Shown here: positions 36,453 through 62,997 of the stretch, piece after piece
How positions within the stretch are numbered: the stretch's first letter is position 1
Layout: the number at the start of each line of letters is the position of its first letter
Assembly (NCBI GenBank): GCA_964635195.1
Contig: CAZWNC010000001.1
Location: 1,312-65,311, forward strand
Source of the DNA: an uncultured Candidatus Saccharibacteria bacterium
GTDB lineage: Bacteria > Patescibacteriota > Minisyncoccia > Phycocordibacterales > UBA12088
Direction: 5' to 3'
Length of the DNA stretch: 64,000 nt
The notes under the pieces: generated by a model
The model's database searches: none
Told to the model about the DNA's origin: nothing
The model's input: only the letters and a program-made list of their open reading frames with translations
Program-made: the position numbers and the translations under genes

Positions 36453-36579
36453 AGGATGTGTGACATTTTGCTTTGGGACACTTTGCACGTATTATGTTTG
36501 CTAGTGATACGCCCTTGCGATCTATGGCGGTACTGGAGTGTCTCGGTATAGAATACAAAGAATCCTAATTATAATACAT

Positions 36580-36987
36580 ATGAAACAGTATAAATCGCTC
36601 GTGTTTACATTTATCGCAACTGCAATCATAGTCGGTGCGTTTGTTGGTGTGTTCTACGTCATGGGTGAACGTTCTGACGTGTCTTCAAAGGATACCGAAG
36701 GATTGGCTGCGCTCGCGACATGCCTTACTGAACGTGGGGCAAAGTTTTATGGATCGTTCACGTGTCCACACTGCCAAGAGCAGAAGAAAGATTTTGGAGA
36801 TGCGGTAGGTATGGTTCCGTATATCGAGTGCAGCACTCCTGACGGTCGAGAGCAAATGCAGGTGTGTGCCGACGCGGGGATTACCGCCTATCCCACTTGG
36901 GTCTTTGCGAACGGTGAGCAAGTGATGGGCAGAGTCACGCTTTCCAGTTTGGCGGAGGCAACAGGGTGTCCTGTTCCTGTGCAGTAA
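36580..36987 (+). CDS. Membrane-anchored thioredoxin-fold protein (CxxC, DsbA/Trx-like)
   Basis: N-terminal TM helix, FTCPHCQEQK redox motif. Immediately upstream of the VKOR gene. Confidence 0.6.
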   Translation: MKQYKSLVFTFIATAIIVGAFVGVFYVMGERSDVSSKDTEGLAALATCLTERGAKFYGSFTCPHCQEQKKDFGDAVGMVPYIECSTPDGREQMQVCADAGITAYPTWVFANGEQVMGRVTLSSLAEATGCPVPVQ

Positions 36988-36993
36988 ACACGT

Positions 36994-37530
36994 ATGGAAC
37001 CTTACGCAGCCTCGCTCACCTACCTTTTCTCGGTGATTATCGTGTGTCTCGACGTGGTCGTCGTGTTCTTGGCGGTATCGCGTGGTGTCATGCGGATGTG
37101 GTTGCCGCCCGCATTCGATCGCGTCTTGTTGCGGTACATTTTGCCCTTCGCGAGCGTGAGTGCACTTATGGGAGTGCTTTTGTCACTTTTCTATTCGGAA
37201 ATTGTCGGTTTTTCGGTCTGCGTCTTGTGCTGGTTGTCGCGAGCGATGCTTTTCCCGTATGCTCTCATAGCGAGTGTTGCGTGGGTGCGTAGGGATGTTC
37301 AAGTGTGGCCTTATCTCTTGTCACTAGCGGTAGTGGGTATGATGATTACGTTGTACCATCACCTGTACCAGATGGGTGTGACGGCGGGGACGCTCTGTAC
37401 CACCTTTGCCAACGGGGGTGATTGTGCGGCGCGGTATGTCTTTGAGTTTGGGTTTGTCACTATGCCCTGGATGGGCTTCACGCTTTTCACTGTACTCGCA
37501 TTCCTTGCGTGGCGGATGCGGGAGCGGTAG
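36994..37530 (+). CDS. Vitamin K epoxide reductase (VKOR)-family membrane protein
   Basis: Multi-TM protein with CVLC active-site-like CxxC and additional Cys pair. Classic pairing with a Trx-like partner. Confidence 0.55.
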   Translation: MEPYAASLTYLFSVIIVCLDVVVVFLAVSRGVMRMWLPPAFDRVLLRYILPFASVSALMGVLLSLFYSEIVGFSVCVLCWLSRAMLFPYALIASVAWVRRDVQVWPYLLSLAVVGMMITLYHHLYQMGVTAGTLCTTFANGGDCAARYVFEFGFVTMPWMGFTLFTVLAFLAWRMRER

Positions 37531-45416: not shown

Positions 45417-46484
45417 ATGATTAAGCCACGTGTGGGAGTAATGCGCGGCGGTCCATCACCTGAATATGAGGTTTCGCTTAAGACGGGGCGAGCTGTTTTG
45501 CAGCATGTCTCGCGCGAGCGGTACGAGGTACTCGACCTCTTTATCGACCGAATGGGTGTCTGGCACGTGCGGGGCAAACCTGTCGAGCCAGCACGTGCAT
45601 TGAGTCAAGTCGACGTCGTATTCAACGCACTGCATGGCAAGTATGGAGAAGATGGCGCGCTCCAGCGATACATGGACATGCATCGCGTGCGATACACCGG
45701 TTCTGATGCATTAGGGTCGGGTGTCGCGATGCACAAGGGGCTCACCAAGCGTGAGCTTTTCCGACGATTGTTTGATGATGAGAGTCCTGTGCCGACGGCG
45801 GGGTATCGACCGGTGTACGTTCCCCTACCTGCGCGCCCGCATCGTGAGGCAGGTGTGCGTGGGGGTGAGCGAGCACGATTGCTTTTTCCAGCTGACATTG
45901 TCCTTTCGGCGCCTGCCGATGCAGGTGAGCTTGCCGGGGTGTTCGAACGTCTTTCTCCTCCACTCATGGTGAAGCCGATGAACGGTGGCTCGTCATTAGG
46001 TATGAGTGTCGTGCGTTCGCGAGATGAGTTTTTGTACGCAGTGCTCTTTGCGTTTGAAAATGCGGAACAAGTGCTGGTGGAACAGTACGTGCGGGGTAGA
46101 GAAGTGACCGTCGCGGTTTTGGAAGATTTTCGTGGGGAGGAGCAGTATGCTTTCCCACCCGTAGAGGTGGTACCTACCAAAAACTCGTGGTTTGACTATG
46201 AAGAAAAGTATGCAGGTCATGCACGGGAACTGTGTCCGGCGCCAGTGCGACCTGAAACGACTCGGGCACTTCTTGAGCTTGCACGTCACATACACCGGAC
46301 GCTCGGCTTGCGAGACTACTCACGGAGTGACTTCATCCTGGGGCGTGATGGTATCTATTTCCTAGAGGTGAACACACTTCCGGGGCTTACCAACACGTCA
46401 CTCTTGCCGAGGGCGGTCGAATCCGTTGGCGCTACATTGCCCCAATTTGTAGACCACGTGCTGACTCGTGCACTTGCACGATAA
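45417..46484 (+). CDS. ddl: D-alanine--D-alanine ligase
   Basis: ATP-grasp with Ddl layout (VFNALHGKYGEDGALQ, LMVKPMNGGSSLGMSVV, YFLEVNTLPGLT). Start MIKPRVGVMRGG. Confidence 0.85.
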   Translation: MIKPRVGVMRGGPSPEYEVSLKTGRAVLQHVSRERYEVLDLFIDRMGVWHVRGKPVEPARALSQVDVVFNALHGKYGEDGALQRYMDMHRVRYTGSDALGSGVAMHKGLTKRELFRRLFDDESPVPTAGYRPVYVPLPARPHREAGVRGGERARLLFPADIVLSAPADAGELAGVFERLSPPLMVKPMNGGSSLGMSVVRSRDEFLYAVLFAFENAEQVLVEQYVRGREVTVAVLEDFRGEEQYAFPPVEVVPTKNSWFDYEEKYAGHARELCPAPVRPETTRALLELARHIHRTLGLRDYSRSDFILGRDGIYFLEVNTLPGLTNTSLLPRAVESVGATLPQFVDHVLTRALAR

Positions 46485-46486
46485 AT

Positions 46487-46521
46487 AAAAAACCGCCGTA
46501 CACCATGTTGGTGTACGGCGG
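46487..46521. terminator. Hairpin terminator (12-bp GC-rich stem) serving the convergent minus-strand secreted-protein genes; possibly also ddl
   Basis: ccgccgtacacc-atgt-ggtgtacggcgg. Flanking A-run on + gives a U-run for minus-strand transcripts. Confidence 0.65.
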
Positions 46522-46535
46522 CGCGTTACGCATGA

Positions 46536-46955
46536 CTAGAGGTCGCAGTCTCCTTTGCATCCTCCATTTTGGTCGACGTCGACACGGGTGCCGACGTTAA
46601 CAAAAACGGGATTTCCACCACTGGAAGACTCAGACATGGCCTGCGCCTTCATGTGGTCTCCGATGACGCTCGCTGTCGCAACAGGCACAGAGCTCGCCAG
46701 ATTTTGAAGCATGCCCTGTGCAGTGCCGACGTTTGCAGCGCCACCGATATGCTTCACCTGCGTTGAAGCCCCCTCCATTATGATCGCGTAGCGGTCAATA
46801 ACAACTGGCCCGCCGTGTCCCCGTACGCCGTTGTCGACGTAGCAGTGTGTAAGGCGAGTACTTCCCTGCGGGCCGACATCAACGCATTCCGATGTCGGTT
46901 TGATTGCACAACCCACAAGTGCGAGAAGTGCGATGCTGATCAACAATATTTTCAT
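46536..46955 (-). CDS. Small lipoprotein (signal peptide with LVGC lipobox)
   Basis: MKILLISIALLALVGCAIKP. Several Cys in the mature part. Contains an internal GTCGACGTCGAC motif. Confidence 0.5.
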   Translation of the reverse strand: MKILLISIALLALVGCAIKPTSECVDVGPQGSTRLTHCYVDNGVRGHGGPVVIDRYAIIMEGASTQVKHIGGAANVGTAQGMLQNLASSVPVATASVIGDHMKAQAMSESSSGGNPVFVNVGTRVDVDQNGGCKGDCDL

Positions 46956-47512
46956 TTCTTTCCTCCGGTGGTGAATTGGCACTCAAAAAGGTTGCTGTCA
47001 AAGGTTGTTGTCGTTGCGGTACCGCCGACAAACGTCGACCCCACTCCCGCACCTGCACCGCCTACGGTACTGGACCCTTGTTCTTTACCCGTGTCACGGC
47101 AGATCATGCGAGGGTCGCCACCTTTGGCGCGCACAGCGTTTCCGCATGTGCCACTGAAGATTGGGCTACCGTTGATACATGCGAAGCGCTCGTCCGGGTA
47201 TGCTTGTCGGTAGATAGTACCGACACTCCATGTGCCGTCCGCAAAACGAAGTCCGTCGCTCCAGAACCATCCCTGATATGAACAGGTAGCATAGCTTTTT
47301 GTTGCGAGCACTTCACTTGCGTGTGCTCTTGTCCATCCTTGATGGTGGGCGAGGCCTTCGGTAAACGCTTGCGCATACGGTGTATGTTGCAACGTTTGCC
47401 ATGCTTCGTGAGGTGCTCGTCCGTGAGCGTGTTCGAGAAAGGGCTTCAGCTCTCCTCCGGGCGCGTTAGTTGCTCCTCCCGCGAGTAGCACGAGGATGAG
47501 TAAGACATACAT
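46952..47512 (-). CDS. Secreted Cys-containing protein (about 187 aa)
   Basis: Signal peptide MYVLLILVLLAGGATNA. The mature region has 6 Cys and Trp-rich segments. Start chosen at internal Met of track ORF 46952..47608. Confidence 0.45.
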   Translation of the reverse strand: MYVLLILVLLAGGATNAPGGELKPFLEHAHGRAPHEAWQTLQHTPYAQAFTEGLAHHQGWTRAHASEVLATKSYATCSYQGWFWSDGLRFADGTWSVGTIYRQAYPDERFACINGSPIFSGTCGNAVRAKGGDPRMICRDTGKEQGSSTVGGAGAGVGSTFVGGTATTTTFDSNLFECQFTTGGKK

Positions 47513-47696
47513 AGTAGTGTCGCCTCCGTGGGTTGTGAATGAATCTCTAAATAGTATAGCACATTTCCCAAAAAAAGCAAATAGCGACATGCTACACATG
47601 CTTGACACATAACCGATACTATGCTAATATCGCATGTGGTGAAGGGCTTGTCGTGTCGACAATCCTTTTGTACTTCCAAAAAAGACGGAGATAGAG

Positions 47697-48029
47697 ATGA
47701 AAAAAATCATTGGTTGCATGCTGTTTGCCATCGCCTTCGCGTTTTTCGCAGGGACTGCGTTCGCCTGTGAGGGCGAGTGTGGTGGAAAGCAGTTCACCAA
47801 ACTGAGCGTCAAGTCGGTCGCATTGGCTGAGTCGCTGAATGGCGGGTATGCCGCCGTGAACGTCTATGGAGTTGGCGATTTGCACGTCGACCTGCCCAAC
47901 GGACATGGAACAGCGGGGGGTCACATCGAGGGCGAAGCCTGGGACGAGGGTCTCGGCAAAGCCGGCGCTGGCTTCGGCGGCGCAATCGAGATCGATTTTG
48001 GTAGTTGCCTCTCGGGTTGTGACGAGTAG
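47697..48029 (+). CDS. Small secreted Gly-rich protein with N- and C-terminal Cys pairs (110 aa)
   Basis: Signal peptide MKKIIGCMLFAIAFAFFAGTAFA. CEGECGG near N-terminus and GSCLSGCDE at C-terminus. Confidence 0.5.
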   Translation: MKKIIGCMLFAIAFAFFAGTAFACEGECGGKQFTKLSVKSVALAESLNGGYAAVNVYGVGDLHVDLPNGHGTAGGHIEGEAWDEGLGKAGAGFGGAIEIDFGSCLSGCDE

Positions 48030-48159
48030 TTCCCGAGTGACAGTCACACGTCACGGATGATGTGTGTTTAAAACAGTGAAAAGAGAGACAGGACGTCTCT
48101 CTTTTTTGTATTCGACTAGTACTGATCAGACGATCCACCTTTGTGATACTATTATCAGT

Positions 48160-49413
48160 ATGAACAAGGGTGTGGGTGTTTCAAGCAAATTCCTTTGGGG
48201 CGCAGCTACTGCATCTTTCCAGGTGGAGGGTGGGATAGAAAACAATGATTGGGCGCAGGCGGCTCGTGAGGGGAAGGTGCCACCCTGTGGTCGTGCGTGT
48301 GACCATTACCATCGTTTTCGTGAGGATTTCGATATTGCTAAAACACTTGGACATACGGCGCATCGCTTTTCGATTGAGTGGTCTCGTATCGAGCCATGCG
48401 AGGGTGAGTTTGACGAGAGCGCCATAGTCCACTACCGTGAAGTGATTGTTGCGTTGCACGAGCGCGGTATTGAACCCGTCGTAACCTTGTGGCATTGGAC
48501 ACTTCCCGAATGGCTTTCGAACACGGGAGGTATTGAGCGTAGTGACTTTCCGGAACGCTTCGCACGGTATTGCGCGTACGTGGTCGAGTGTCTCGCCGAG
48601 CACGCACACTATTTCACCACACTCAACGAGCCCTACAGTACGATCGTAAACGGTTGGGTGCGTGGCACCTTTCCGCCATTTCATCGATTTCCACCAATCG
48701 GCGTAGCACGTATTCCAAGTGATCGAACGCTTGCAGAGAATTCCGTACCCGACTGGTTTGGGTTCGTGAAGTTTTTTACACTCGCAAATACGCTTGCACG
48801 CGCGCACGTGTATGCCTACCGCGCCATAAAGGCCAAGGTGTCCACGGTCGATGTCGGCATTACTTTCCAGGTACACGTATTCACCGGGCGCACCTGGTGG
48901 GGCAAGCTCAAGGCGCGCTTCATGATGTGGAACAACAATCACCGTTTCCTCAAGCGGGTTATACGTCAATGTGACACACTTGGTCTGAATTATTACTTTT
49001 ACACCGACTTCGACGATCATACTGTGCATCCCAAAACAGACATGGGGTGGGACGCACGCCCGGAGAAAATATACGACGCGCTTATGGCAGTGAAGCGCTA
49101 TCGTAAGCCGGTCATTGTCGAGGAGTGCGGGTGCGCGGATGCCCACGATAGGTTTCGTACGGAGTACATTCGGCGGACGGTGGAGGGTATTGAGTGTGCG
49201 ATCCGTGACGGTGTCGATGTGCGTGGCTTCATGTATTGGTCGCTGCTAGATAACTATGAGTGGGCGCATGGCTTCGACAAGCGCTTTGGCCTCGTTGAGG
49301 TAGACTACGACACGCTCGAACGCACCATTCGTCCCTCGGCGTATGCCTATCGTGACCTCATTGCCTCCCGCGTGATTGAAGTCAACCTCCAAGTAGCCCG
49401 GAATTGTACATAA
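48160..49413 (+). CDS. Glycoside hydrolase family 1 beta-glycosidase
   Basis: FLWGAATASFQVEGG N-terminal signature, TLNEP acid/base region, nucleophile region VIVEECGCAD (non-canonical for GH1 I-T-E-N-G). Track ORF from 48064 is an extension. Confidence 0.8.
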   Translation: MNKGVGVSSKFLWGAATASFQVEGGIENNDWAQAAREGKVPPCGRACDHYHRFREDFDIAKTLGHTAHRFSIEWSRIEPCEGEFDESAIVHYREVIVALHERGIEPVVTLWHWTLPEWLSNTGGIERSDFPERFARYCAYVVECLAEHAHYFTTLNEPYSTIVNGWVRGTFPPFHRFPPIGVARIPSDRTLAENSVPDWFGFVKFFTLANTLARAHVYAYRAIKAKVSTVDVGITFQVHVFTGRTWWGKLKARFMMWNNNHRFLKRVIRQCDTLGLNYYFYTDFDDHTVHPKTDMGWDARPEKIYDALMAVKRYRKPVIVEECGCADAHDRFRTEYIRRTVEGIECAIRDGVDVRGFMYWSLLDNYEWAHGFDKRFGLVEVDYDTLERTIRPSAYAYRDLIASRVIEVNLQVARNCT

Positions 49414-49476
49414 GATACTCACACGTTTCAAAAAAAAGCATGGAAAGCAAGTGTCGTGATGTGGTAGACTGCGAAC

Positions 49477-50847
49477 ATGTTTTCGAATGATGGACGTACT
49501 AATGGTCAAGACATACAGAGTACACGTAACGGAGGTGATGTTCCCACCGTATGGGAGTCAGCCATTCCTCACCCATCTTCAGAGGTTGAGCGAGGTGCGC
49601 CACAACCCTTACGTCCAGATGCCGTAGCGCAAGTGGCCAATCACGCAGTTGTTGGTGAGATGCCACACGGTGGACATCGTGATGCCGAGCTTTTTATCCA
49701 GGGGGTTTTAAACGAAGCGATAGCACGCAGAGCTTCTGACGTGCATTTTGAGCCTCGCACCGATCAATATCGTGTTCGGCTTCGCATAGACGGTGTATTG
49801 CATGTATACCTTGAACGTCCGCTTGAGGAGTACGCATCGGTATTGAATACGGTCAAAGTGCTTGCTGATGTCGATATCGCCGAGCACAGTCTTCCGCAGG
49901 ATGGCCACATCGAAATAGCGGTTGCAGGGCGCGGATCATCACCCGCAAGCGAACAGCATGTCTACGATGTTCGGGTGTCCACATTTCCTTCGGTAAACGG
50001 TGAAGTGATTGTTATGCGTGTACTGAACCGTTCCGACGCGCTTTTAAGTGTTGATGCGCTCGGCATGGATGAATCATCGTTCAAGATGCTTCGCACCATG
50101 CTTCTTTCATCGTTTGGTATGATATTGGTGACCGGTCCGACCGGTTCCGGTAAGACAACCACGTTGTACTCCATGATGCGTGAATTGAAGAGTTCTGAAA
50201 AGAATATGATTACTCTCGAAGACCCGATCGAGTTCCACTTGGACTGGATGCGACAGTGTGAGATACGTGAAGAACGTGGTTTCACTTACGAGCGGGCAAT
50301 GTCTGCGGTACTGAGACAAGACCCCGACGTGCTCATGGTAGGTGAGGTGCGTGACGCAAAGACGGCGGAGTATGCGGTACGCAGTGCTCTCGTGGGACAC
50401 TTGGTTGGGTGTACCATCCATGCAAATACAACGACCGGCACCATAGCGCGCCTTCTTGACCTGGGAGTACCGAGGAGCAGTCTCGCACATGCATTGAACG
50501 GCGTTATCGCGCAACGTCTTGTGCGCATGGTGTGTGCAAGCTGTAGAGAATCGTACATGCCGGAACAATTTCATCTTGAACATTTCGGGTTACGCTCGGA
50601 TTCCGGAACATACTATCGTGGGCGGGGGTGTGCTGTATGCAGTAACACCGGCTATGCTGGCAGAGTTGCCATTTATTCCGTTATGCTTGTTACCGATGGT
50701 CTGCGCAGTATGATATTTGGACAGCATTCTTTGGTCGATATTCAGCAATTCGCCATGCAAGAGGGTATGCGTACACTCAAGATGGACGCGGTTGCGAAAA
50801 TTCTTGCGGGAATCACTACGGTCGAGGAAGCGGCGAGGGTTATTTAG
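49477..50847 (+). CDS. Type II/IV secretion system ATPase (PilB/GspE family, short N-terminus)
   Basis: Walker A GPTGSGKTTT, Asp/His boxes, tetracysteine CASC...CAVC zinc motif. 456 aa. Confidence 0.8.
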   Translation: MFSNDGRTNGQDIQSTRNGGDVPTVWESAIPHPSSEVERGAPQPLRPDAVAQVANHAVVGEMPHGGHRDAELFIQGVLNEAIARRASDVHFEPRTDQYRVRLRIDGVLHVYLERPLEEYASVLNTVKVLADVDIAEHSLPQDGHIEIAVAGRGSSPASEQHVYDVRVSTFPSVNGEVIVMRVLNRSDALLSVDALGMDESSFKMLRTMLLSSFGMILVTGPTGSGKTTTLYSMMRELKSSEKNMITLEDPIEFHLDWMRQCEIREERGFTYERAMSAVLRQDPDVLMVGEVRDAKTAEYAVRSALVGHLVGCTIHANTTTGTIARLLDLGVPRSSLAHALNGVIAQRLVRMVCASCRESYMPEQFHLEHFGLRSDSGTYYRGRGCAVCSNTGYAGRVAIYSVMLVTDGLRSMIFGQHSLVDIQQFAMQEGMRTLKMDAVAKILAGITTVEEAARVI

Positions 50848-56197: not shown

Positions 56198-56273
56198 GCC
56201 GAGATAGCTCAGTCGGTAGAGCACCCCCATGGTAAGGGGGAGGTCCCGAGTTCGATCCTCGGTCTCGGCTCCA
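56198..56273 (+). tRNA. tRNA-Thr (anticodon GGU), CCA encoded
   Basis: Cloverleaf GCCGAGA/TCTCGGC acceptor, D-arm GCTC-AGTCGGTA-GAGC, anticodon loop aTGGTaa, T-arm CCGAG-TTCGATC-CTCGG. Confidence 0.8.
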
Positions 56274-56522: not shown

Positions 56523-56595
56523 GCCGCCTTAGCTCAGTCGGTAGAGCAATGCATTCGTAACGCATAGGTCCCCAGTTCGATCCTGGGAGGCGGCT
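56523..56595 (+). tRNA. tRNA-Thr (anticodon CGU), no encoded CCA
   Basis: GCCGCCT/AGGCGGC acceptor, identical D-arm, anticodon loop tTCGTaa (A-C mismatch at stem base), T-arm CCCAG-TTCGATC-CTGGG. Confidence 0.7.
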
Positions 56596-61695: not shown

Positions 61696-62997
61696 ATGAA
61701 TGTTCGTGATGCGTCTTTAATATCTGATCTTGCGCCGCTTGCGGTACAAGACTATGAGTACCTTCGATACGGCAACGATCGTAGTATCAAGGATGCTTTT
61801 TTTGCGGGTGATGTGCTCGAGCCTTGGTTCTATTACCACGACATCGACGTTGAGCGTATCGATGAACAGCTTGGGGATGTGTCCGCTTTAACGGCAGTTG
61901 TTGAGCTTTTTGAGGATACGTTGGTGCGTGCACCGTATGTTGAGAAATTACGTAAAATACGAGAGAAGTTTGAACTCATCCGTGCCGCTCGTATGGGCGA
62001 TGATCCCGCAGTACTCGATGCATCACTTCGACTCTATGGTGATCCTCAAGAGGATATGTTTCAGTATGCACTCGACCATGTGCGGAGCTGTCTCTCCAGT
62101 GCTGTACAAGTGTACGGGGAGCACCCGCTTATTCGACCTCTCATCGAAGCACTCAAGCCTGTTGTCACCGGTGAAGGGGAGGGTGTGTACCCGTGGAGTG
62201 GTATAGAACTTCCCACTCCTCGCACGTACGCAACTGAGGAGTCGCTCACGTCACACGAGATACTTCGCCGAGTCTACGCCGCCTACGAGCAGTATGGCAT
62301 CACAGGATGGAGTGCGGTTGTTGATGCGCCCGGGGAGCGCATGACCTTCAACACAAACCACGAGCTTGCGACGATATTCATTCCCAGTGATGAAGATCTT
62401 TCTGTGCGTCGCTACGCGCTTTCGCACGAACGGGTCGAAGCGATTATTGCTCATGAGGTCGGTGTGCACGTGCGTCGCCGTGTCGAGGGAGAAAAGAGCC
62501 CATTACGCCTTCTTGGTTTTGGCCTTGCGGGGTACTTGCGGGCGGAAGAAGGTATCGCAACCTATGCGGAGCAAGTACGTGACGGCGCACGACATTTCGC
62601 GGGAATACTCGGGTATCTTTCTGTCGGGTGGGCACGGGGCATCGACGGTACGCCGCGTACCTTTCGAGGTCTTTTCGACATGGTCTATCCGTACCTGGTG
62701 CTTGCATCACTTGAACATGCGCTTGTGTATGATACAAAAGTGGTCGATGTGGCAAAGCTCTGTGAAAAAAACAGGAGGCGTGCGTGGGCACGCTGTGTAC
62801 GGACTTTTCGTGGCACAACCGGCGCGACTCCCGGGGCGTGCTTCACAAAAGACATTGTGTACCTTGAGGGCAATATCGCCATTTGGCAGCTCGTCCAAAA
62901 AGACCCAAAGCGAGTCGATACATTCCATCTGGGTAAGTACGATCCCGCAAACGAGGAACATGTGCGACTCTTGCGCGAGCTTGAGATGTTGAAGTGA
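61696..62997 (+). CDS. DUF1704/QEGLA-motif family putative zinc metallopeptidase
   Basis: HEVGVH zinc-binding HExxH followed by EEGIATYAEQ (QEGLA-like). 433 aa. Confidence 0.45.
   Translation: MNVRDASLISDLAPLAVQDYEYLRYGNDRSIKDAFFAGDVLEPWFYYHDIDVERIDEQLGDVSALTAVVELFEDTLVRAPYVEKLRKIREKFELIRAARMGDDPAVLDASLRLYGDPQEDMFQYALDHVRSCLSSAVQVYGEHPLIRPLIEALKPVVTGEGEGVYPWSGIELPTPRTYATEESLTSHEILRRVYAAYEQYGITGWSAVVDAPGERMTFNTNHELATIFIPSDEDLSVRRYALSHERVEAIIAHEVGVHVRRRVEGEKSPLRLLGFGLAGYLRAEEGIATYAEQVRDGARHFAGILGYLSVGWARGIDGTPRTFRGLFDMVYPYLVLASLEHALVYDTKVVDVAKLCEKNRRRAWARCVRTFRGTTGATPGACFTKDIVYLEGNIAIWQLVQKDPKRVDTFHLGKYDPANEEHVRLLRELEMLK

Follow-up and report, generated by a model that had tools for sequence, protein, structure and literature searches.

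The stretch analysed here, referred to as the window, comprises 64,000 nucleotides of the genome of a Candidatus Paceibacterota bacterium, a member of the Candidate Phyla Radiation (CPR), and this study concerns a locus of three small genes within it, which we call A, B and C. A first-pass annotation, made from the letters of the window, had described a cluster of three small exported Cys-containing proteins of a putative small-genome organism; all three open reading frames (ORFs) lie where it had placed them, and the affiliation with the CPR agrees with its view of the organism. As read from their N-termini, A carries a lipoprotein-type export signal and B and C carry Sec-type signals, and comparison with relatives indicates that the trio behaves as a unit in inheritance, rearrangement and recombination. 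We tentatively propose that the three proteins form one functionally linked, disulfide-stabilised extracytoplasmic module of the envelope or surface of these monoderm-type, ultra-small Paceibacterota, a reading which we regard as plausible rather than probable.

Gene arrangement and expression signals

Gene A (46536-46955, minus strand) encodes a lipoprotein precursor of 139 aa, counted from the ATG after GGAGGAAAGAA, and starts MKILLISIALLALVGC, while gene B (46952-47512, minus strand) encodes a secreted protein of 186 aa, counted from the ATG after GGAGG. Gene C (47697-48029, plus strand) is divergent from B-A and encodes a secreted protein of 110 aa, and all three ORFs have good ribosome-binding sites. 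By sequence reading, the TGA stop of B and the ATG start of A overlap as ATGA (46952-46955, minus strand), with the identical 4-nt overlap also found in the related lineages L005, L011 and L012, and the Shine-Dalgarno sequence of A, GGAGGAAAGAA, sits within the 3' end of B. Together, the overlap and the position of this Shine-Dalgarno sequence suggest that B and A form a translationally coupled operon. A putative near-consensus promoter for this operon lies at 47553-47581 (minus strand; -35 TTTGCT, 17-nt spacer, extended -10 TGcTATACT), in a block that L005, L001 and L002, a lineage at 59% identity, have kept. The strong flanking terminator reported in the first-pass annotation is real: it is an intrinsic terminator at 46492-46522 (minus strand), placed between A and the convergent Ddl gene, with a 14-bp GC-rich stem followed by the U-run UUUUUUAUUU, and its fold (dG -28.8 kcal/mol, z -5.7) was equalled in stability by none of 200 shuffled sequences.

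Gene C has a putative near-consensus promoter of its own at 47602-47630 (plus strand), consisting of TTGACA, a 17-nt spacer and TAATAT with an upstream TG (10/12 matches), which L002 keeps as TTGACA-17-TAAGAT; for this site and for the one upstream of B we infer promoter function from the motifs. Folding of the region 48030-48125 found a terminator hairpin downstream of C (48078-48106, plus strand), with a 12-bp stem followed by a U-run, and given its own promoter and terminator C is predicted to be monocistronic and not co-transcribed with the GH1 gene downstream. The 5' untranslated region of C also contains a perfect palindrome, TTGTCG-TGT-CGACAA (47648-47662, plus strand), located between the promoter and the ribosome-binding site, which is identical in L005 and partly conserved in L002, and which could be an operator or an RNA hairpin.

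Export signals, cysteines and searches for known families

Export signals were judged by inspection of the n-, h- and c-regions, by hydropathy and by conservation across orthologues. Protein A (MK-ILLISIALLA-LVGC) has a charged n-region, an h-region and a lipobox of the form [LVI][ASTVI][GAS]C within about 25 residues, so that the LVGC lipobox named in the first-pass annotation is confirmed by the sequence. Across lineages the A-position lipoboxes read LVGC, IVGC, VGGC, TMGC, LAAC, LAGC and FSGC, and the N-terminal KD15 hydropathy of the A family is 2.1-2.9. Each of the eight lineage versions of A examined has the lipobox and, in its last 4-14 residues, a C-terminal Cys pair with a spacing of x2 to x5; window A ends GGCKGDCDL and has its mature Cys residues at 24, 38, 133 and 137, and the mature Cys counts of A and C are even. 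The most conserved part of A is a central Gly/Ala/Val-rich helix-Pro-helix, which reads GGAANVGTAQGxLQNLASSVPVAxAxVxGD in the window clade, while the central segment of the L011 version is GAIAGTVVG (KD15 hydropathy 1.77). Neither an Lgt nor an LspA gene is among the annotated ORFs of the 64-kb window, which is part of the genome only. As a lipoprotein of about 14 kDa with such a central helix-Pro-helix, A resembles the glycine-zipper lipoproteins, known from SlyB/Pcp, the Rickettsia 17-kDa antigen and the Gly-zipper families of Pfam, but seven versions of A gave no Gly-zipper Pfam match at E up to 5, and A differs further in its C-terminal Cys pair, its seemingly coupled partner gene and its host, a CPR bacterium without an outer membrane.

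In protein B the N-terminal signal is followed by a region of three helices and a beta-rich domain, and the protein contains the conserved motif FSGTCGN. Its description in the first-pass annotation as a secreted protein with an N-terminal signal stands, whereas the length of 187 aa and the six Cys residues given there do not, as it has 186 aa and five Cys, at 77, 112, 123, 138 and 178. By inspection, the signal has a hydrophobic core and the small residues at -3/-1 (TNA before P) of a Sec/signal peptidase I (SPase I) substrate; a basic n-region is absent in the window clade, while K/R is present in P0009, P0012-P0020 and others, and the N-terminal hydrophobic signal itself is found in 15/15 B-family members. 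An AlphaFold2 (AF2) model built from the 15-sequence family alignment has a predicted local distance difference test score (pLDDT) of 75.8 overall and of 87-97 for residues 21-130, compared with 44.7 for a four-sequence alignment, and in it three helices precede a beta domain that has long hairpins. The high-confidence core holds a cluster of the invariant R102, E108, S120, C123 and C178 together with the near-invariant N125, and the most conserved motif, FSGTCGN, which contains C123, is modelled with pLDDT >90. The helical region is rich in His, with seven in residues 28-64, but the family has no invariant His and its His residues are not conserved.

All 15 B-family sequences have an odd number of mature Cys residues (3, 5 or 7). 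C77 and C112 are both present in ten members, both absent in five and never found singly, which is the signature of a disulfide, and P0020 carries one further Cys pair, while every member has C123, C178 and C138 or its shifted counterpart. The model pairs strands 136-150 and 167-180 in a hairpin, with 138 facing 178 by its register, in a part of low confidence (pLDDT ~50), and a C138-C178 disulfide is probable on that basis. With C77-C112 and C138-C178 paired, C123 would be left unpaired.

Searches with the model of B returned nothing significant, either against PDB (best Foldseek E 0.83, cystine-knot growth factors) or against BFVD (best E 0.62). The cystine-knot growth factors PDGF, VEGF and Norrin, which are the top PDB matches, share with B long disulfide-stapled two-stranded hairpins and have an intermolecular disulfide in the dimer. 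This fold was rejected for B: the best match, at E 0.83, has a probability of 0.38 as scored by Foldseek, the matches span E 0.83-4 with probability no higher than that and TM 0.12-0.30, and B has 3-5 mature Cys in a different pattern, lacks the six-Cys knot and has an extra helical domain. Vasohibins recur low in the Foldseek list, and these are linked to CPR-C4, a CPR-restricted family recognised only by structure, with a catalytic Cys in a Cys-His-Leu triad (PMC9108980). A vasohibin/CPR-C4 cysteine protease was rejected because B has no invariant His, and thus no triad His, and because TM is 0.12-0.17 (Foldseek E >2); CPR-C4 itself is absent from the Foldseek matches. Nor does B fit a YkuD L,D-transpeptidase, as judged by the YkuD beta-sandwich, the conserved His and the SxGC[IV][RN] motif.

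Mature B begins, in residues 22-48 (window ~47370-47450, minus strand), with L-x-P-F-L-x-H-x-H-G-R-x-P-x-E-A, which mimics the TAL-effector repeat boundary LLPVLCQAHGLTPEQV. A PDB profile match of B to TAL effectors with E 2.5e-7 was rejected because it sums repeat scores on this one short motif: it adds up at least seven repeats of 2-6 bits each (i-E >100), while B holds a single copy of LxPfLxhxHGrtP and TAL effectors need tandem repeats of 33-35 aa.

Protein C is confirmed as the divergently transcribed 110-aa protein with CEGECGG and GSCLSGCDE termini that the first-pass annotation had described. By inspection its signal peptide fits Sec/SPase I, with MKK, a hydrophobic core and AFA before Cys (...GTAFA followed by CEGECGG), so that one CxxxC comes straight after the cleavage site and a second lies at the C-terminus (GSCLSGCDE). 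In three lineages C also fits a relaxed PROSITE-type lipobox (A-x-A-C), while the L016 version has its Cys at +2 and the L012 and L014 versions have no Cys at the cleavage site. Most C-position proteins carry an N-terminal and a C-terminal Cys pair. The protein is acidic (pI about 4.5) with 24% Gly, and mature C has a pI of 4.1-4.5 in all lineages; C-position proteins are 110-207 aa long overall and 190-207 aa in L012 and L014, and those of L010 and L016 show YAYGGGN-type turns. Sequence inspection, made without a repeat-finding tool, noted no internal repeats in C. BLASTP links the C-position proteins transitively (L002-L010 1e-15, L010-L014 1e-6, L010-window 2e-4), making window C transitively homologous to those of L010, L002, L014 and L016.

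In pairing a small secreted Gly-rich beta protein divergently with a lipoprotein-containing operon, the trio recalls curli, in which csgBA is divergent from csgDEFG, CsgA and CsgB are secreted Gly/Asn-rich beta-solenoid subunits and CsgG is a 277-aa lipoprotein channel. However, none of six C-family members matched Curlin_rpt (PF07012) at E up to 5, and further differences are the acidity and terminal Cys pairs of C, an A protein of 139 aa that is unlike CsgG, and a host that has no outer membrane.

Searches of A, B and C against Pfam, NCBIfam, PADLOC and PHROGs, and of all family members against Pfam, found nothing consistent, the sole family-library matches being to ExtJ (E 0.1) and Cor lipoprotein (E 0.095), both at signal-peptide level. 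PDB sequence profiles gave nothing for A or C, and library, profile and structure searches taken together matched none of the three proteins to an ordinary housekeeping family. There is also no profile similarity linking A, B and C to each other, as hhalign found no relationship between A and C or between B and C. The three families are unclassified and very rare, and in every membership test run the trio falls outside the designs it resembles in outline.

Distribution, synteny and recombination of the trio

Among 5.8 billion proteins, close relatives numbered three for B, four for A and one for C, all sharing one genomic context. When 1.84 billion cluster representatives were searched in full with a HMMER profile, only 13 B-family clusters emerged; of these, P0018 is a repeat protein that does not belong to the family, and the others are signal-peptide proteins of 164-253 aa that are 25-41% identical to window B. 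Wherever contigs are long enough the order is the same, with a divergent small acidic Gly-rich signal-peptide protein, a B-like gene and a lipoprotein of 140-218 aa. The grouping of the three genes in the first-pass annotation therefore holds as a conserved unit across seven diverged Paceibacterota lineages, with B identity down to 28%; these are three close lineages together with P0009 (L010/L011), P0015 (L012/L013), P0019 (L014/L015) and P0011 (L016). Export signals and Cys patterns are kept among orthologues that otherwise share just 18-40% identity. Scanning GTDB genomes gave a single species representative, whereas two scans of JGI metagenome contigs, one starting from B and one from C, and two of viral contigs yielded no relatives. 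An exact-sequence look-up found neither window C nor P0004 on record, and there are no paralogues of A, B or C elsewhere in the 64-kb window.

The syntenic position of the locus is fixed across deep divergence, with Ddl only 47-53% identical. In L010 the trio is intact without Ddl and UvrC and with GH1 4 kb off behind unrelated genes, which indicates that the trio, and not its neighbours, is the conserved unit. The neighbours identified with Pfam in the window are UvrC, Ddl, GH1, a T2SSE/PilB ATPase, two Response_reg proteins, a HisKA kinase, HlyD, ABC and MacB/FtsX, in agreement with the flanking genes listed in the first-pass annotation. The link that it implied between the trio and the PilB, two-component and MacAB genes did not hold up, as PilB, CheY, kinase and MacB follow GH1 in the window only, while all relatives with enough flank have other genes in that place, usually Y1_Tnp-like, EamA, GH42-like and pyruvate kinase genes, none of which is present in the 64-kb window. 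The break in synteny lies just after GH1, at window 49413-49477.

The closest informative relative is L009/L005, a Candidatus Paceibacterota metagenome-assembled genome (MAG; JAYRSE010000007.1). Compared with L009, the ratio of nonsynonymous to synonymous divergence (dN/dS) is 0.10 for A, 0.09 for B and 0.055 for C, and the three are thus real genes under purifying selection. A 100-bp sliding comparison with the same relative reveals a sharply bounded tract of 1.9 kb (~46350-48240) with 87-99% DNA identity between flanks which are ~70-78% identical, running from inside the 3' end of Ddl through A, B, the intergenic DNA and C to inside the 5' end of GH1. While dS is saturated for UvrC (2.1), Ddl (1.5) and GH1 (1.4), at 75-84% amino-acid identity, it is 0.29-0.36 for A, B and C, at 91-97% identity. 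This conservation extends to synonymous sites and intergenic DNA and so goes beyond purifying selection, and the simplest explanation of the sequences is that two diverged lineages recently exchanged the entire cassette by homologous recombination. L001 shows a fainter signal of the same kind, with dS of 0.67-0.88 vs 1.8-2.0.

Between B and A, the L001 (771-1034) and L006 (796-1059) contigs, from two independent assemblies, contain a chimeric ORF of 87 aa, which begins like A (MKIL) and continues with residues 104-186 of B. Different allele types are combined in it: it is 90% DNA-identical to its own genome's B, matches the window-type allele exactly in one patch and has a tail resembling that of L002, and it is probably a recombination scar.

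Against L002/L007, where there is no sign of exchange, dN is 0.22-0.30 for the trio vs 0.12-0.17 for the housekeeping neighbours, and window C is only about 26% identical to its positional counterpart. The first-pass annotation had proposed checking for conservation and rapid evolution in related genomes, and both are found: the trio is kept and C evolves fast. The fast evolution of C and the apparent cassette exchange fit a surface or interaction role, without proving one, and the adhesion or host-interaction functions suggested in the first-pass annotation are conjectural.

Elsewhere in the window, ~10 kb from the trio, lies a DsbB homologue (36994-37530, plus strand; PF02600, 26 bits vs a cut-off of 22.1) with a CVLC pair, and directly upstream of it a gene for a membrane-anchored thioredoxin-like protein with a CPHC motif (36577-36987, plus strand; Pfam Thioredoxin E 0.0046, below the cut-off). 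With this pair the organism is plausibly able to oxidise exported Cys residues. Further along the window, a 433-aa protein (61696-62997, plus strand) has a C-terminal match to Pfam MATCAP (microtubule-associated tyrosine carboxypeptidase; E 8e-22), which is unexpected in a CPR bacterium, and two tRNA genes (56198-56270 and 56523-56595, plus strand) are located downstream of the MacB-like permease.

Interpretation of the trio and alternative explanations

In the module that we propose, A would be attached by its lipid to the external side of the cytoplasmic membrane, where it would hold B, which would be made in amounts coupled to A. Both would be stabilised by disulfides introduced by the DsbB/thioredoxin-like pair, in B between C77 and C112 and probably between C138 and C178, at the base of the long hairpin, and the unpaired C123 could then serve in an intermolecular bond, such as that of a B-B dimer, or in thiol chemistry. 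C would be an abundant acidic Gly-rich beta protein, clasped or cross-linked through its N- and C-terminal Cys pairs, which associates with the A-B complex or is deposited around it. We propose that, because this module would be exposed, C diverges fast and alleles are exchanged as a whole cassette. The module might act as a structural layer, in attachment or as a receptor. So viewed, the trio is a small operon of a familiar sort, encoding Sec- or lipoprotein-exported, disulfide-bonded envelope proteins, and no new mechanism is demonstrated.

Several points weigh against the proposed module. In a clade whose synteny is conserved, adjacency counts as no more than modest evidence that genes are linked in function, the C versions of L002 and L012 are without some or all of the Cys pairs, and the homology of the C family across lineages is weak (BLASTP E 1e-15 to 0.02). 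The assignment of C138-C178, and hence the free C123, comes from predicted secondary structure in the low-confidence part of the model (pLDDT ~50). CPR bacteria are moreover often anaerobes, in which extracytoplasmic disulfides are less expected.

A more far-reaching version, in which the trio would be an undescribed disulfide-locked surface assembly, is in our view quite unlikely. Here B, with a new fold, would be dimerised or tethered to A through C123, C would form a polymer or lattice through its terminal Cys pairs, and the whole would help to determine attachment to hosts or recognition by phages, a role which would explain both the fast divergence of C and cassette alleles sweeping between species by homologous recombination. 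The nearest parallel is offered by the Ena (endospore appendage) proteins of Bacillus, disulfide cross-linked DUF3992 jellyrolls without signal peptides: C is likewise small and beta-rich with Cys motifs at its termini, which could lock neighbouring subunits, but it has a signal peptide and no match to Ena, and its polymerisation is pure conjecture.

Among the alternatives to the proposed envelope module, the one that fares best, although still unlikely, is that B is an extracytoplasmic thiol enzyme, a hydrolase or transferase whose substrate would be the cell wall or else polymers of the host or the surface, with C123 as the nucleophile, A as its membrane anchor or regulator and C as substrate or product scaffold. 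In its favour, R102, E108, S120, C123, C178 and N125 cluster in the high-confidence core, the odd Cys count leaves one free thiol, and Ddl adjoins the trio in most lineages; set against this, the B family offers no invariant His and no fold match.

The fast divergence of C could also point to an antagonism locus, with C as a Sec-exported bacteriocin-like toxin, A as its immunity lipoprotein and B as an accessory or maturation factor. Small lipoproteins are the immunity proteins for some bacteriocins, and the class IIa microcins (MccV, MccL), which may be compared with C along with the Sec-dependent class II bacteriocins, are Gly-rich with disulfides. Mature C, at ~85-90 aa, is similarly small and Gly-rich with disulfide-type Cys pairs near its termini, it is encoded in a small dedicated locus as a seemingly monocistronic gene with a strong predicted promoter, and toxin and immunity genes would be exchanged together as a whole cassette. 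Against this, mature C is acidic in all lineages rather than cationic or amphipathic, it has a Sec signal and no double-glycine leader, no Pfam bacteriocin or microcin family matched at E up to 5, and orthologues at the C position reach the 190-207 aa of L012 and L014. There is also no conserved dedicated exporter, as the HlyD/MacB exporter of the window is not conserved with the trio, and the fixed syntenic position of the locus is unlike the patchy distribution of accessory toxin loci, all of which makes such a locus improbable.

Somewhat more improbable still is that A, B and C are functionally unrelated, lineage-specific hypothetical genes that are neighbours through shared ancestry in a narrow clade. 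The seven lineages do form one clade with broadly conserved synteny (UvrA-UvrC-Ddl ... GH1), the families are as rare as 13 clusters in 1.84 billion representatives and the three proteins have no mutual profile similarity, but the trio came through the change of flanks in L010 intact, the ATGA coupling of B and A and the back-to-back divergent promoters are conserved, the three proteins are alike in design, each combining an export signal with a C-terminal Cys motif, and the recombination tract carries all three. Least probable of all, metal-handling or redox envelope proteins that bind Cu, Zn, Ni or Fe, or shuttle electrons, through CxxxC/CxnC motifs and His would fit the CxxxC pairs at the termini of A and C, the seven His of the helical region of B and the thiol-oxidoreductase pair nearby, but Cys-pair spacing that varies from x2 to x5 among orthologues and two C versions without pairs are atypical of a metal site, the His residues of B are not conserved across its family, and the searches linked none of the proteins to Sco, CopZ, thioredoxin or any other metal or redox family.

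If the trio is merely another lineage-specific set of envelope proteins little changes, as orphan families are common in CPR, and lineage-specific exported proteins of unassigned function are likewise common in CPR genomes, whose protein-family content has been surveyed (PMC6744442). The 1.9-kb tract is a rare case in which gene-specific exchange among diverged uncultured CPR lineages is directly visible, and it flags unusual selection on the locus. The CPR or Patescibacteria make up a large share of bacterial diversity and live attached to other cells, and their envelopes are almost wholly uncharacterised. As a compact conserved unit, apparently strongly expressed to judge from its predicted signals, the trio offers a small and concrete target for structural and biochemical work on how CPR bacteria build or decorate their surface, and the confidently predicted domain of B, which is without a structural neighbour, adds to its value as such.

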